A DNA stretch of 51,683 nucleotides from Gemmatimonadales bacterium. Lineage in GTDB: Bacteria > Gemmatimonadota > Gemmatimonadetes > Gemmatimonadales > GWC2-71-9. The stretch lies in assembly GCA_036559785.1 (NCBI GenBank), contig DATBSM010000029.1, forward strand, positions 1 to 51,683, given 5' to 3'. Below the pieces are notes generated by a model. That model was not told the DNA's origin, searched no databases, and worked only from the letters and a program-made list of their open reading frames with translations. This document shows positions 4,076-29,150 of the stretch, piece after piece; within the stretch, counting starts at the first letter, position 1; each line of letters opens with the position of its first letter. The position numbers were made by a program, and so were the translations under genes.

Positions 4076-5379
4076 GGTGACAGCCTTTCGGAACGATACA
4101 GGTCCTCGACTGTTTCCCGGGGTCTCGCCACCCACCACTTTCCAGCATCCACGATGACCTCCGGCGGCCGCGGGCGGCTGTTGTAGTTGGAGGCCATGAC
4201 GAAGCCGTAGGCGCCCGCGCCCAGAATCGCCAGCGCGTCGCCCGCCTCGAGCCCGGGAAGGGTTCGGTCGAGCGCCAGGAAGTCGCCGGTCTCGCACACC
4301 GGCCCGACGACGTCCACCCGGGCAGAGGGCCGCTCCTGCTCCACCAGCTCCACGATCTCGTGGTATGCCTGGTAGTGGCTGGGCCGGACGAGGTCGTTCA
4401 TGCCGGCATCCACGACTACAAACTCTTTTCCACCCGAGTGCTTGCGATAGAGCACCCGAGTGAGGAGCACACCGGCGCTGCCCACAAGAAATCGACCCGG
4501 CTCCAGGTAGATCGTGAGGCCGGTAGGGGCGAGCAGCGGCACCACCGCTTTGGCAAACTCGGTCGGATCCACTGGCCGCTCATCGGAATAGCGGATGCCG
4601 AGACCACCGCCGACATCGAGGACGCGGAGAGTGCCGACACCGGCTCGTCGCAATTTCTCGACCAGATCGATCAGGCGGCCGATTCCCTGGCGGAATGGCT
4701 CCGCGTCGAAGAGTTGGCTACCCAGGTGCATGGCCAGCGTGGTGAGCTCCAGCCGCGGATGGGCGAGGATATACTCGGCGGCCGGGAGGACCTGATCGGT
4801 GGGCACACCGAACTTGATTCCGCTCTTGCCGGTGGAGATGTAGGGGTGGGTCTCGGTGGTGACATCGGGATTGACCCGGACGCCTACTCGGACCTGAGCC
4901 TCCTCCGCGTCGGCAACACGGCCAACCAGCTCCAGCTCTTCCCGGGACTCGACGTTGAGGTGCCCCACCCCAGTGCGAATGGCGGAGCGAAGCTCCTCAG
5001 CGGTCTTCCCCACCCCACTGAAGACGATCTGCTCGGGGGCGAACCCTGCCGCCAGTGCGCGTGCCAGCTCACCGGAGGAGACGATGTCCGCCCCCGCACC
5101 CAGCTCTCTCAGGAGCCGGAGGATCGCGAGGTTGCTGTTGGCCTTGACGGCAAAGCAGATCCGATGCGGCAGCGATCCCAGGGCCGCATCCAGCGAGCGA
5201 TAGCGGCCGCGGATCGCCTCGGCGTTGTAGACGTAGGCCGGTGTACCAACCTGCTTCCCTATCTCAGTGAGCGACACATCGCCCAAATAAAGCGCGTCGC
5301 CTCGCCGAGCCAGTCCAGCATCCGCAAACAGGAGTTCCGTCGGCGAGACTGTCCCGCTGTCCCGCTGCCCCGCTGCCAC
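4072..5379 (-). CDS. lysA: diaminopimelate decarboxylase
   Basis: [24 protein letters not shown] (PLP Lys), GGGLGI, and CETGD near the C-terminus. The GTG at 5379-5377 lies 2 nt after the proS stop. The ORF-track start at 5433 would overlap proS. Confidence 0.93.
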
Positions 5380-5382
5380 GCC
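5351..5382. repeat. Four tandem 8-mers (GTCCCGCT GTCCCGCT GCCCCGCT GCCACGCC) at the proS stop / lysA start junction
   Basis: Read directly from the sequence. Bases 5361-5376 (cccgctgccccgctgc) are identical to 29121-29136 in the rpsI-rpsB spacer. Confidence 0.85.
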
Positions 5383-8154: not shown

Positions 8155-9405
8155 TTACACCTCCATCCCCAGCACAGACATGACGTCTCCCACCGTATGG
8201 AAGGACCCGGTGACGAGCACCGTCCCTGCGCCTTTCTGTACTTTATCGATCGCCTCGGTGAACTCTGGAATCAGCGTCCATTCCGCGTGCGCGGGCGGCC
8301 GCTTTGGGTCCTTGAGCCAGCGGCGGAGCCACTCGATGTCCCAGCCCCGTCCGGCCGCCGTGGGGGCGATCGTCAACACGCCACGATCGATCACCTGGTC
8401 CAGCTGCACCAGCATCTCGGGCCACTCCTTGTCGCCCAGAATCGATACCAGCGCATGTAGAGGCCGCTTCGGCTGGGTGGAACCCAGCGCTCTCACCAGC
8501 GACCGCATCCCATCCGGGTTGTGCGCCACGTCGAAGAGCCAGCGGCCTCTCTGGTCGAGCCGCCCGGCGACCCGGGCCAGGCCGAAGGCCCGCTCGATCT
8601 GGGCCGCCGTGGGCCGGTAGGGCACGGGCAAAGCCATCAGAATGCCATGGGCCACCGCCGCGTTGCGCCGCTGATGCGGCCCCACCAGGCTGAGCGGGCC
8701 ACGCCACTCGTAGTCCGGTGGCAGCACCCGGATGTCCGCTGCGGCCCGCCCGTCCGCCCGTCCGCCCGTTCGCCGGACCGCACGTCTGGCCTCGCGGCGC
8801 AGGACCCCCACCAGCTCAGGGTCGGTCTCGCCGATCACGAACGGCACGCCGGCCTTGGCAATACCGGCTTTCTCGCAGGCGATCAGCTCCAGGGTGTCAC
8901 CCAGATACTTCATGTGATCCCGCGCGATCTTGGTCACCCCGCTCGCCAGGGGCCGCACCACATTGGTGCTGTCGAGGCGCCCACCCAGCCCCACCTCCAC
9001 CACCGCCACCTCTACGCCCCGGGCGGCAAAATCGGCGAACGCGAGCGCGGTCGTGGCCTCGAAAAAGGTCGCCTTGTGCTCCAGGATGGTCGAAAGAACC
9101 AGGGAGGTCCACATCGCCACCGCTTCTTCAGAGATGGGCACACCGTCCACCTGAATGCGCTCGCGGAACGAGATCAGATGGGGTGAGGTGTACAGCCCCA
9201 CCCGCCAGCCGGCCTCTCTGAGCGCCGCCGCCACCAGGGTCGAGACGCTTCCCTTGCCGTTGGTGCCGCCGATATGCACCGATGGCATGACCTCGTGCGG
9301 GTTGCCGAGGGTCTTGAGCAGCGCACGCGTCGTCGTCAGCCCGAACTTGATCGTCGTAGTCCGGGGGAAGAGGAACTCCAACGACTGGGCGTAGGTCAGC
9401 GACAT
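8155..9405 (-). CDS. folC: bifunctional folylpolyglutamate synthase / dihydrofolate synthase
   Basis: P-loop HIGGTNGKGSVS, a Mur-ligase fold, and LVTGSFHTVGDV at the C-terminus. accD-folC adjacency as in E. coli. ATG at 9405, with a TTG at 9408 also possible. Confidence 0.92.
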   Translation of the reverse strand: MSLTYAQSLEFLFPRTTTIKFGLTTTRALLKTLGNPHEVMPSVHIGGTNGKGSVSTLVAAALREAGWRVGLYTSPHLISFRERIQVDGVPISEEAVAMWTSLVLSTILEHKATFFEATTALAFADFAARGVEVAVVEVGLGGRLDSTNVVRPLASGVTKIARDHMKYLGDTLELIACEKAGIAKAGVPFVIGETDPELVGVLRREARRAVRRTGGRADGRAAADIRVLPPDYEWRGPLSLVGPHQRRNAAVAHGILMALPVPYRPTAAQIERAFGLARVAGRLDQRGRWLFDVAHNPDGMRSLVRALGSTQPKRPLHALVSILGDKEWPEMLVQLDQVIDRGVLTIAPTAAGRGWDIEWLRRWLKDPKRPPAHAEWTLIPEFTEAIDKVQKGAGTVLVTGSFHTVGDVMSVLGMEV

Positions 9406-16275: not shown

Positions 16276-16740
16276 TTACGTGCCGCTGCTTCCGAATCCA
16301 CCTGTGCCTCGTGCGGTAGGGGGCAACTCTTCGACTGGGTGGAAAGCAACTCGCTCTACTCGCGCAACGATCATCTGGGCGATGCGCATGCCCCGCGTGA
16401 CCTGAAACGTGGTGGAGCCCAGATTCACCAGCGCCACCATCAGCTCGCCCCGGTAGTCGCTGTCGATGGTGGCTGGGGTGTTCGGCAGCGTGATGCCGTG
16501 CCGGAGTGCCAGGCCTGACCGGGGCCGCAGCTGGCACTCATACCCCACCGGAACCGCAATGCTGAAACCAGTCCGAAAGAGCTTTCGCTCGAACGGCGCC
16601 AGCTCACCGTCTTCGGCGCTGGCCAGATCGTAGCCGGCCGAACCCGGGGTGGCAGAGCTGGGAAGCGGGAGCCCCTCAGCATGGGGGAGGCGCGCGATCA
16701 GCACCTCCACCGCGGCCTCGGACAGCACCCGCTCAGACAA
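16276..16740 (-). CDS. dut: dUTP diphosphatase
   Basis: 154 aa. GSAGYDL, RPRSGLALRHGI, IDSDYRGEL, and a GFGSSG tail. The TTG start overlaps the ald stop by 8 nt. The GTG at 16728 is an alternative start. Confidence 0.94.
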   Translation of the reverse strand: MSERVLSEAAVEVLIARLPHAEGLPLPSSATPGSAGYDLASAEDGELAPFERKLFRTGFSIAVPVGYECQLRPRSGLALRHGITLPNTPATIDSDYRGELMVALVNLGSTTFQVTRGMRIAQMIVARVERVAFHPVEELPPTARGTGGFGSSGT

Positions 16741-17845
16741 CGCTGTTGACGTCGGTCAGGGGAAGACGGAAGGCTTCGGCCACCCCCGGATACACCACCT
16801 TGCCCTCGACGACGTTCAGGCCGAGCCTTAACGCATTATCGGACTTGCACGCCGCACGCCAGCCGAGCTTGGCGAGCTTAAGTCCGTATGGCAGCGTAGC
16901 ATTGGTGAGGGCCAGGGTAGAGGTCCGGGGGACGCCGCCCGGCATATTTGCGACGGCATAGTGCAGAATGCCGTCTACGAAGTAGGTGGGGTTTTCGTGG
17001 GTCGTGGGCTTGATGGTCTCGACGCACCCGCCCTGGTCGACCGCCACATCTACAATGACCGACCCAGGCTTCATCAGCTTGAGGTCGGCCCGCTTGACCA
17101 GATGGGGGGCTTTGGCGCCCGGAAGGAGCACCGCCCCCACCACCAGGTCGGCCCGCCGGATAGCATCCAAAATATTGTGACGGTTGGAGTAGACGGTATC
17201 CACGTTGGCGGGAAGCACGTCGGCCAGGTACCGCAGCCGGTCCAGGGAGATGTCCAGGATCGTCACGTGGGCGCCGAGGCCAGCGGCCATCTTGGCGGCA
17301 TTGATACCGACCACCCCGCCGCCGATGATTGCGACCTCCCCGGGGGCCACCCCGGGCACCCCACCCAGCAGAATGCCGCTTCCTCCGAAGACCTTCTCCA
17401 GATACTTGGCGCCTTCCTGCACCGCCATCCGGCCGGCCACCTCGGACATCGGCGTGAGCAGCGGCAGCTCCCCGCTGTCCAGCTGCACGGTCTCGTAGGC
17501 CACCGCGACGGCCCCCGAGGCGATGACCGCCCGGGTGAGATCCTCGGCTGCGGCGAAGTGGAAATAGGTGTAGATCAGTTGGCCCCGGCGCATGCGGGGC
17601 CATTCGACGGCAATCGGCTCCTTGACCTTCATGATCATCTCGGCCTGCTGCCAGACTGCGTCGGCAGTCGGCAGAATCGTGGCCCCAACGCCCCGATATG
17701 CGTCATCGGAGAATCCGCTTCCCGACCCGGCCCCCTGCTCCACCAGGACGGAATGTCCCGCCGCTGTCAACGCCTCGGCTCCGGCCGGCACCAGCGCGAT
17801 ACGATTCTCGTTGGTCTTGATCTCCTTCGGGACGCCGATCTTCAT
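16733..17845 (-). CDS. ald: alanine dehydrogenase
   Basis: [22 protein letters not shown], Rossmann motif [14 protein letters not shown]. The ATG at 17845 is preceded by AGGAG. Confidence 0.95.
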
Positions 17846-17886
17846 GGACTCCTCTTGAGTGACGGCTTCGGTTAAAAAGCGTGGCC

Positions 17887-17979
17887 GGTGAGCGGTAAGC
17901 GGTGAGCGGGTGCGCAAGAGACCAGGGTAACGTTACGGAGTATCCGCCAGCATTCCCCGCTTACCGCTCACCGCTTACC
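17887..17979. repeat. Inverted repeat whose arms are tandem heptamer arrays (GGTGAGC GGTAAGC GGTGAGC ... GCTTACC GCTCACC GCTTACC)
   Basis: Left arm 17887-17907, right arm 17959-17979. 18/21 complementary in register, or 14/14 perfect in either of two 7-nt-slipped registers. A5 at 17874-17878 and T5 at 17981-17985 flank it. The right arm contains the M16 peptidase stop (17968-17970). Confidence 0.85.
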
Positions 17980-19233
17980 GTTTTTCGGCCCCAAACGTAC
18001 AACGGTTTGCCTTTCAGGGGCGAAGAACTCCCCGGCGACAGCAGCGACCTCCTCGGAAGTCACGGCATCGATCTCGCGCAGCATCTCATCCAGCGGCCGG
18101 TAACGGTCATCGTGCAGGATGAAGCCCGCCAGCCGGCCCATGCGAGCGGCCGGGCTTTCCAAAGAGAGCATCACCTGGCCCTTGAGCTGCTGCTTGCCGT
18201 TGACCAGCTCGGTCATCGGTAGTCCTTCCCGCGCCAGGCGGGCATACTCCCCACGGATCGCCTCTGCCGCTTGGTCGGCTGTCGCCGGCTGGGTACCGAC
18301 GTAGACACCCAGCTGCCCCGAGCCCTGGTAGAAGTGCTTGTAGGCGAAGATGGCATAGGCGAGCCCCAGCTCCTCCCGGACCCGCTGGAAGAGGCGGCTG
18401 GACATGCCGCCGCCAAAGGCATTCGTCAGGATGGCCAGCGGGAAGCGCCGCGGATCGCGCAGCGGGAAGGTGTCCGTGCCGAACACGATATGGGTCTGCG
18501 CGGTGTCCCGTTCCTCGGCGCGGCTGGCACCCTGAACGGCAGGAGCCGGGGTAACGGCCTCACGAGGGGGCTCGGGAGCAGTGCCCTCGAACCACCCTTC
18601 CCGCTCCAAAGCGGTGAGCAGCTGATCGTGGTCAACGTGTCCCGCCGCGGCGATCACGCAGTTCCCCCGGTAATAGCCGTTTCGGTGCAGGACCTTCAGA
18701 TCCTCGGCCGAGAGGGCGGCAAGCGATTCCGGGGTGCCGAGAATGGAGTACCCGTACGGATGCTCCGGCCAGAGCGTCTCCGCGTGCATCTCGAACACGA
18801 GGTCGTCCGGCGTGTCGGCGACCCCGCTGATCTCCTCCAGAATCACATTACGCTCGGGCTCCAGGTCGCTGGCGCGCAGAAGGGGCCAACGCACCAGGTC
18901 GGTGAGGATTTCGACCGCCAGCGGCAGATCGGCGTCGAGCACATGAGCTTGATAGCTGGTGTAGTCGCGTCCGGTAAAGGCATCCAGTCCCCCGCCCCGG
19001 ATCTCCAGCCCTAGCGCGAGCTCCTGGGCGGTCCGGCGTTCGGTGCCCTTGAAAACCATGTGCTCGAGCAGATGAGAGATTCCCAACTGGCGGCGCGGCT
19101 CATGGGCGGAGGCGGTGCGGACGTAAATACCAACTGCCACCGAACGGACCCCTGGTAACGTCTCGCTGAGAACGACCAGTCCGTTCGGCGCAGTGGTGCG
19201 GCGCAACCCTTCGTCGAGTTCAACCGTTTCCAC
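17968..19233 (-). CDS. M16-family zinc metallopeptidase (insulinase/pitrilysin-like)
   Basis: 421 aa. Inverted zinc motif HLLEHMVFKGT and an M16 N+C domain layout, located downstream of pnp. Confidence 0.9.
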   Translation of the reverse strand: METVELDEGLRRTTAPNGLVVLSETLPGVRSVAVGIYVRTASAHEPRRQLGISHLLEHMVFKGTERRTAQELALGLEIRGGGLDAFTGRDYTSYQAHVLDADLPLAVEILTDLVRWPLLRASDLEPERNVILEEISGVADTPDDLVFEMHAETLWPEHPYGYSILGTPESLAALSAEDLKVLHRNGYYRGNCVIAAAGHVDHDQLLTALEREGWFEGTAPEPPREAVTPAPAVQGASRAEERDTAQTHIVFGTDTFPLRDPRRFPLAILTNAFGGGMSSRLFQRVREELGLAYAIFAYKHFYQGSGQLGVYVGTQPATADQAAEAIRGEYARLAREGLPMTELVNGKQQLKGQVMLSLESPAARMGRLAGFILHDDRYRPLDEMLREIDAVTSEEVAAVAGEFFAPERQTVVRLGPKNGKR

Positions 19234-21369: not shown

Positions 21370-21448
21370 GTCTAGGGTCTAGAGTCGAGGATCAAGGTCT
21401 CGTGGAGAGTCACCGTCAGTGGTAGACCCTCGACCCTAGACCCTTGAC
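21370..21448. repeat. Inverted repeat with heptamer-array arms (GTCTAGG GTCTAGA GTCGAGG ATCAAGG ... GGTAGAC CCTCGAC CCTAGAC CCTTGAC) in the rpsO-pnp spacer
   Basis: Left arm 21370-21397, right arm 21421-21448. The three outer unit pairs give 19/21 complementary positions. The element ends 40 nt upstream of the pnp GTG. Confidence 0.85.
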
Positions 21449-21453
21449 CCCGT

Positions 21454-29052: not shown

Positions 29053-29150
29053 CAGCGGGGCCGCAGGCAGCAGGGCAGTTTGTTCCGGCGGCTGGACACC
29101 ATCAGGTGTGCTTTGACCGCCCCGCTGCCCCGCTGCTACCTGCCCCGCCG
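29053..29150. repeat. Inverted repeat with roughly 8-mer-array arms (CAGCGGGG CCGCAGG CAGCAGGG CAG ... CCGCCCCG CTGCCCCG CTGCTACC TGCCCCG) in the rpsI-rpsB spacer
   Basis: The left arm (29053-29078) aligns colinearly with the reverse complement of 29122-29150 at about 22 paired positions with two small bulges. CAGCGGGGC also has two exact 9-nt complements (29119-29127 and 29127-29135). The element begins 6 nt after the rpsI stop. Confidence 0.8.

Follow-up and report, generated by a model that had tools for sequence, protein, structure and literature searches.

Between the M16 peptidase and alanine dehydrogenase (ald) genes of a Gemmatimonadales bacterium lie two opposed arrays of 7-nt units that can pair into a long hairpin, and the question raised by this locus is what kind of element the arrays form and what their stem does. 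The junction is part of a 51,683-nt stretch of DNA (contig DATBSM010000029.1, here called the window) from a metagenome-assembled genome (MAG; handle G000) of 2.84 Mb in 344 contigs, 76%-complete and 65.5% G+C, whose nearest relatives are all Gemmatimonadales. A first-pass annotation made from the sequence alone described the arrays and likened the A5 and T5 runs on either side of them to the flanks of a bidirectional intrinsic terminator. Our analysis favours another answer, to which we assign a probability of about 70%: the element belongs, as a copy without a gene, to a dispersed, fast-evolving family of palindromic array hairpins that fill intergenic gaps. Full-length copies of this family carry a PF05635 gene; the short copies are probably non-autonomous, and the stem probably serves as an RNA processing or protection site.

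The hairpin and the genes it separates

The element and its two neighbours comprise the following features, given by position in the window:

17874-17878, plus strand: A5, which is the U5 of the sense (minus-strand) transcript and resembles the A-run that precedes array ends family-wide
17880-17886: CGTGGCC, a decayed outermost (fourth) left-arm unit, which reads CGTGAGC in the closest relative (G058); the terminal unit of the family is CGTRAGC
17887-17907, plus strand: left arm GGTGAGC GGTAAGC GGTGAGC, the 3′ arm of the sense transcript
17908-17958: inner GGG (17908-17910), unique loop and inner CCCC (17955-17958)
17928-17937: loop palindrome GTAACGTTAC
17959-17979, plus strand: right arm GCTTACC GCTCACC GCTTACC, the sense 5′ arm GGUAAGC GGUGAGC GGUAAGC
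17981-17985, plus strand: T5, the complement of the peptidase Lys-Asn codons AAA AAC and also a family-type A-run at the sense 5′ end
17968-19233, minus strand: M16 peptidase gene (PF00675 and PF05193), downstream of pnp
16733-17845, minus strand: ald gene (PF05222 and PF01262), with its ATG at 17845-17843 and the Shine-Dalgarno sequence GAGGAG

The gene order on the minus strand is pnp, M16 peptidase, ald, mreB and mreC, with both neighbours of the element on that strand. Read in the sense direction, the element is laid out as AAAAAC-(GGUAAGC GGUGAGC GGUAAGC)-GGGG-loop-CCC-(GCUCACC GCUUACC GCUCACC)-GGCCACG-C-UUUUU. The positions and sequences that the first-pass annotation gave for A5, both arms, T5 and the palindrome were exact in every case, and its pairing count held as well: 18 of the 21 in-register positions form Watson-Crick pairs. 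The three that do not are the purine/pyrimidine (R/Y) positions, which give two G.U and one A.C in the plus-strand RNA and one G.U and two A.C in the minus-strand RNA. Slipping by one heptamer in either direction does yield 14/14 pairs, as had been described, yet the in-register RNA helix computes as more stable (-35.2 kcal/mol on the plus strand and -31.0 on the minus strand, against -25.7 when slipped). None of 200 shuffles folded as well as the 141-nt region on either strand (z = -4.2 for minus, -5.25 for plus), and the window has four occurrences of GGTRAGC ×2 where 0.03 would be expected. The region matches no Rfam family, and exact-protein look-ups found no strain variants of the locus.

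The element reaches into the peptidase gene. The stop codon (TGA, minus strand, 17968-17970) falls within the middle unit of the right arm, in agreement with the annotation, and the sense 5′ arm supplies the last three codons (Gly-Lys-Arg) along with it; the M16 peptidase thus takes its final codons and its stop from a repeat element. Directly before the stop, the C terminus reads RLGPKNGKR here, RLGPKDGKR in G058 and RLGPQG in a relative without the element. Three units give stops in all three frames, and slippage should therefore be unable to extend the peptidase far, so that the three-frame stops in the 5′ arm may buffer the protein against it. All-frame stops were rejected as a rule for array hairpins in general: they hold for GGTRAGC and fail for GGCTATT and AGCGGGGC, two other repeat words of this genome (units read directly).

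A dispersed family and the terminator question

Genome-wide, GGTRAGC ×2 has 37 matches against none for the reversed control pattern, and a relaxed form of the word marks 87 array ends, which form 25 G-first pairs and no C-first pair. A typical site reads CGTRAGC (GGTRAGC)n GGG, then an unrelated loop, then CCC (GCTYACC)n GCTYACG. Ahead of the first unit, A is the most frequent base at -5 to -2 (50-56 of the 87 ends); the first unit itself is CGT-type in 59 of 87, and the family end consensus is AAAAG-CGTRAGC ... GCTYACG-CTTTT. Both flanks of the element fit this consensus (AAAAAG-CGTGGCC and AAAAAC-GGTAAGC), and dozens of unrelated loci share the same word, end consensus and inner GGG/CCC: the element is a member of a dispersed family. 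The flanks of the arrays are inverted (A-run and T-run) and are not direct repeats. C(GTGAGCG)nGG, equal to CGTRAGC (GGTRAGC)n GGG, is the reading that suits the array best; it would then be a 10-bp stem, CGTGAGCGGG, in which an internal heptamer has been duplicated. In longer copies a module of CGTGAGCGGG plus AAGAGAAAA is iterated, and its A-rich part pairs with the CTTTTCTT stretch of the opposite arm.

Two further copies in this genome have settings of their own. A GGTRAGC hairpin at C26:4688-4968 has a GGTGAA-type hairpin inside its loop, an arrangement suggestive of the insertion of one element into another, and in the C81:7250-7350 region a two-module GGTRAGC-family hairpin lies between two sequences that look tRNA-like by eye.

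The GGTRAGC family is one of many. Among Tandem Repeats Finder (TRF) arrays of at least 3 copies, 232 have period 7 and 217 period 8, both exceeding period 6 and period 9, and their words include GGCTATT/MATAGCC, AGCGGGGC, GGTRAGC, GGTRAAC, GGAGTCA, GGGAGCT and others, comprising 7-mers, 8-mers and some 9-mers. Neighbouring arrays of the same period form 143 pairs, of which 113 are inverted and one is direct, giving 113 array hairpins or more. Of the 113, 111 have their G-rich arm on the 5′ side. Copy number may differ greatly between the two arms of one hairpin, and 90 of 97 loops are unique within the genome, a result on which we rejected the idea that loops are filler DNA copied from elsewhere. 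Hairpins with the same architecture and other words occur outside this genome as well: a congener that has no GGTRAGC carries them, as do another family within the order, further Gemmatimonadota and one Terriglobia MAG. Avoidance of Rho was considered as the cause of the G-first rule and found to be unsupported, solo operon arrays being C-rich on the sense strand in 36 cases and G-rich in 39.

The window itself holds a second array hairpin just upstream of pnp (21370-21450), with 3+4 copies of GTCTAGG-type units around a 32-nt loop and 4+4 copies in G058; the Escherichia coli pnp leader hairpin is an RNase III site. Solo 8-mer arrays lie at 5349-5381, 8746-8786 and 29119-29148 (CTGYCCCG, CCGCCCGT and GCCCCGCT).

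The first-pass annotation likened the element to a bidirectional intrinsic terminator. On such a Rho-independent reading it would end the transcript of pnp and the peptidase and stop antisense transcription arriving from the other side, and the heptamers would be merely the way in which its stem is built. The long G+C-rich stem between A5 and T5 invites that reading, and roughly half of the orthologous elements described below (~13/19 if array hairpins are counted) keep a T3-T5 run past the stem on the sense side, so that some terminator-like effect at this site is conceivable. Canonical hairpin-plus-T-run terminators are moreover rare in this genome (34/860 array-free gaps with a strict pattern), so non-canonical hairpins may serve. 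The anatomy of the element nevertheless fits a terminator poorly. As the annotation itself recorded, the T-tract adjoins the stem on the plus strand only, and 8 nt separate the sense U5 from the stem. The plus-strand T5 is coding sequence, and the 8-nt distance arises because 17880-17886 is a decayed outermost unit. Intrinsic terminators have a short loop (about 3-8 nt), a conserved U-tract 0-2 nt past the stem and enrichment at the ends of transcription units; the element shows none of these, its loop spans ~47 nt (17908-17958, including the GGG/CCCC boundaries), and a simple terminator/promoter scan at the element found nothing. Where a copy has several modules, its A-rich and T-rich stretches are paired with each other within the stem.

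The distribution of array hairpins argues in the same direction. With crude gene calls based on G+C content at third codon positions (GC3), hairpins of all families fall in 60 tandem, 12 convergent and 15 divergent gaps against a background of 1430, 403 and 382, which are the same proportions, and those of the GGTRAGC family in 15, 3 and 3; convergent gaps are not enriched and divergent gaps are not depleted. Arrays abut coding sequences, with a stop-to-array distance of mostly -2 to +10 nt. T-runs are unrelated to the direction of transcription: across all families, T4 at most 14 nt past the 3′ arm occurs in 5/84 cases where a gene reads in and 3/90 where none does, and in the GGTRARC family T4 follows the hairpin in 5/21 and 5/21, respectively. 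A5 and T5 are instead the family end consensus, and in the closest relative both runs are lost together with the loop palindrome. We therefore regard a dedicated terminator as unlikely, and hairpins of this A/T-flanked kind should not be called terminators from looks alone.

Persistence and turnover in the genus

The peptidase/ald junction was fetched from 30 congeners, a comparison that the first-pass annotation had proposed; these species are mutually related, and counts across them are not independent. In most of them the gap from the peptidase stop to the start of ald contains an array hairpin. The exceptions are four species with a different large palindrome (G073, G024, G019 and G042), one with a single 8-mer array arm (G071) and one with a decayed remnant (G066). 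The word at the junction changes with the species, being GGTRAGC, GGTRAAC, GGTGAAR or GGAGAAC, with a mixture in one of them. For the two innermost units per arm in 19 species, taken from windows that represent each species' best helix, a choice favouring pairing, 93.6% of cells are paired and 9 of 14 pairs have changed on both sides; 0/500 shuffles reach this. The R/Y position is exceptional in that it is often unpaired across species. No junction element was found in more distant genomes.

In G058, the closest relative (nucleotide identity 90% across the 1.3-kb query and 92% across 19 kb), the element has 4+4 units, against 4 (one decayed) + 3 here, around a homologous loop. A5 has become ATAAT (plus strand), T5 has become TCTTT and the loop palindrome reads GAAACGTTGC. 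Homology of the loop is confined to that of G058, at neutral-like divergence. Elsewhere in the shared 19 kb, both arms of the pnp-leader hairpin and the 8-mer array at 5349 are matched at orthologous G058 positions, and the 8-mer array at 8746 is partly decayed there. The covariation among 19 congeners and the one-unit difference from G058 support a real, maintained hairpin with slippable heptamer arms; this part of the first-pass interpretation is supported and the terminator function is not. At the level of sequence, these comparisons demonstrate that the junction element has persisted through most of the genus while its word drifts, its arms change together and its unit number slips.

Turnover of entire copies is visible at another locus that was compared with relatives, the junction between ndk and the next gene. 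G000 and one relative have GGTRAGC hairpins there; the hairpin of a second relative is built of GTGACAA/GGGACAA, and unrelated palindromes occupy the site in others. In several relatives the site is empty, the stop codon being followed directly by a conserved TTGACC-17-TACTTT motif. Filled and empty sites coexist, and the whole element, loop included, has therefore been gained or lost. Among congeners, the copy number of GGTRAGC ranges from 0 to 158 matches (>100-fold).

Other features of these junctions stand beside this result. The highly conserved TTGACC-17 nt-TACTTT motif downstream of ndk precedes the next gene's ATG by 7-8 nt (L011:1560-1605, G000 C50; L169-L195) and looks like a promoter for a leaderless mRNA. 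In some species the same gaps hold other large palindromes (L117, L130, L134, L139; L175, L183), for example of the GTCATCCTGAGCGAAGCGAAGGA...-type and the GTAGGGGCGCACCGTGGTGCGCCC-type; hairpin elements of several kinds are drawn to these gaps.

Could the element then be a purely local and neutral product, an old stem-loop expanded by replication slippage and kept palindromic by template switching, with no link to a mobile cassette or to PF05635? The changed unit number relative to G058 fits such an origin, as do the form C(GTGAGCG)nGG, expected from duplication inside a 10-bp stem, the absence of a G.U bias on the sense strand and the over-representation of heptamers as a long simple-sequence-repeat (SSR) class in bacteria (literature cited in PMC4692102). 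It is harder to reconcile with one word, one end consensus and inner GGG/CCC at dozens of unrelated loci, with copy numbers that differ more than 100-fold between congeners, with whole elements that come and go at the ndk junction, or with a single chirality in 111/113 hairpins, unlike random local origins. The word is also common to a PF05635 cassette and co-varies with that protein, as set out below. We judge a local origin to be less probable still than a terminator.

PF05635 cassettes and known systems

A search for inverted arrays 250-1200 nt apart, and then through all open reading frames (ORFs) of the genome, identified five PF05635/TIGR02436 genes (23S-rRNA intervening sequence (IVS) / four-helix-bundle). 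All five lie in loops of G-first inverted array pairs, each with a different word:

C100, 1585-2090: arms CGTGAGC/GGTGAGC, with an AAAAG end and GGTRAGC-family module structure
C330, 8267-8789: arm word GGCTATT
C56, 2098-2658: arm word GGGCAGCG
C310, 2311-2801: arm word GGAGTCA
C311, 5377-6022: 9-mer arm word GGACGGGAA

PF05635 is thus associated with array hairpins throughout this genome, and the arms of our element use the same word and modules as the cassette at C100:1585-2090. Homologues of the C100 protein (22 fetched) extend the association: CGTGAGC/GGTRAGC modules surround 11 of 11 with at least 69% identity, the flanking words at 50-57% identity are GGTRAGG, GGTGAGT or GGTGAAC, and one homologue at 40% has GGGGAGC. 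Judged from these flanks, the arm word and the PF05635 protein travel together. We class the element as a gene-less relative of IVS-type PF05635 cassettes and not as a full member; its loop holds no ORF, being too short for one. In C100 itself the PF05635 ORF continues into the 3′ arm.

We propose that the short copies are not autonomous and either derive from PF05635 cassettes or act as their partners, and that their arrays lengthen and shorten through replication slippage. The 21-28 bp stem on the pnp-peptidase(-ald) RNA, which starts inside the last peptidase codons, would be a double-stranded RNA processing site of the RNase III type or a site of 3′ protection, by analogy with IVSs, and not a canonical terminator. 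Several observations weigh against parts of this proposal. No target-site duplication (TSD) or associated transposase was found, which bears on the mode of spread. Descent of the short copy by internal deletion is unsupported: its loop has no similarity to the gene-bearing copies or to the rest of the genome, and on the same ground we rejected the loop as a PF05635 gene remnant. Mismatches on the sense strand comprise 35 G.U and 45 A.C, which is no G.U bias and hence no signal of selection at the RNA level, and the covariation of the arms could come from arm-to-arm template switching without function. A search for the RNase III signature motif found none in the 76%-complete assembly, and the T-runs that follow many orthologous stems count on this side as well.

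A broader hypothesis goes further, and we offer it as tentative. PF05635 proteins might act in trans as the partners of array hairpins with heptamer or octamer words, with each lineage recognising its own word and maintaining or spreading both the cassette and its gene-less copies; array hairpins, IVSs, the STRR sequences (short tandemly repeated repetitive) of cyanobacteria and the heptamer pairs of Xanthomonas would then form one undescribed class of G-first mobile elements. Intergenic heptamer repeats of bacteria have been known since 1990 (STRR) and are still unexplained, and a PF05635 partnership, if true, would give them a concrete and testable candidate partner. The whole system is visible in this one genome, which combines many word families, a chirality of 111/113, covariation of arms across the genus at one junction, presence and absence of copies at another, and the location of all its PF05635 genes inside hairpins whose word tracks the protein. 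A literature search found no paper on such repeats in Gemmatimonadota, and one on PF05635 and IVS-protein terms found nothing tying the family to heptamer repeats.

Among known dispersed repeats, the repetitive extragenic palindromic (REP) elements and their hairpin-forming doublets (REPINs), mobilised by the IS200-like Y1 transposases known as REP-associated tyrosine transposases (RAYTs), are one point of comparison. REP elements are linked to mRNA 3′ protection. The array hairpins are likewise intergenic, palindromic, dispersed and lineage-specific, and Y1_Tnp genes occur in 4/5 relatives tested, yet none was found in G000 or in G011, the relative with the most copies. Where relatives do carry Y1_Tnp genes, the repeats on either side of them are ordinary REP palindromes (GCGGTCCTCCGGACCGC and others), not heptamer arrays. 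A RAYT-mobilised element is largely refuted by these results, and we hold it to be very improbable. The abundance and lineage specificity of these intergenic palindromes do recall REP, bacterial interspersed mosaic element (BIME) and REPIN systems with RAYT (PMC3116915), but the arms are tandem arrays and not a fixed palindrome of 20-40 nt, the loops are unique and no RAYT association was found. The RAYT-like Y1_Tnp genes of G058, G015, G022 and G005 (L143-L148), with conventional REP palindromes such as GCGGTCCTCCGGACCGC, GCCGGGCCCTTACGGGCCGGGC and CGACTAAAGTCGC..., constitute a separate repeat system in the same genus. Two other classes were considered and dropped: MITEs (miniature inverted-repeat transposable elements), which the lack of a TSD and of a transposase disfavours, and integron attC sites, whose known consensus does not match the core sites here.

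Another close parallel is with protein-coding 23S rRNA IVSs, whose design the full-length copies share. The IVS of Coxiella burnetii (Warrier et al. 2016) combines a terminal stem of 28 bp with an S23p ORF; the tandem heptamers of its 5′ part vary in number among strains, and RNase III cleaves it within the stem (PMC4990558). Similar IVSs occur in Leptospira and others. The full-length copies on C100, C330, C56, C310 and C311 likewise have a PF05635 ORF in the loop of an array stem, and terminal inverted repeats of the IVS type, with tandem heptamers forming a long stem, are present in the element studied here. Unlike the Coxiella IVS, this element has no ORF and lies between protein genes rather than in helix 45 of 23S rRNA. 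The solved S23p structure is that of an X. campestris protein (PMC4990558), and PF05635 resembles Avd, a protein of diversity-generating retroelements (DGRs) (PMC10053308).

Heptamer repeats are also known from other bacteria. Cyanobacterial STRR sequences are dispersed intergenic 7-bp tandem units, one of which forms a hairpin between hupS and hupL, with proposed roles in transcript stability and translational coupling (PMC2670836). The present element shares with them tandem 7-bp units, dispersal between genes and a hairpin between cistrons of one operon, and differs in phylum and in word; its arms are built of one 7-nt word with the reverse complement opposed, the arrays are dispersed and intergenic, and position is kept while units vary. 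In the Beggiatoaceae the repeats are TAACTGA (PMC4679880).

The genomes of Xanthomonas campestris and X. axonopodis (~65% G+C) each hold ~180 intergenic GGGAATC heptamer sites (Rehm et al. 2015; PMC4692102). Of these, 70-75 are convergent pairs on opposite strands that are capable of forming a stem-loop, conserved in position and variable in length and sequence (PMC4692102). That paper draws no link to PF05635. The word of our element differs from GGGAATC and has no G-quadruplex potential, and the genome described here has many word families, including 8- and 9-mers. What the two systems have in common is a similar G+C content, tandem 7-nt units in intergenic DNA, inverted arrays and a fixed position with varying length.

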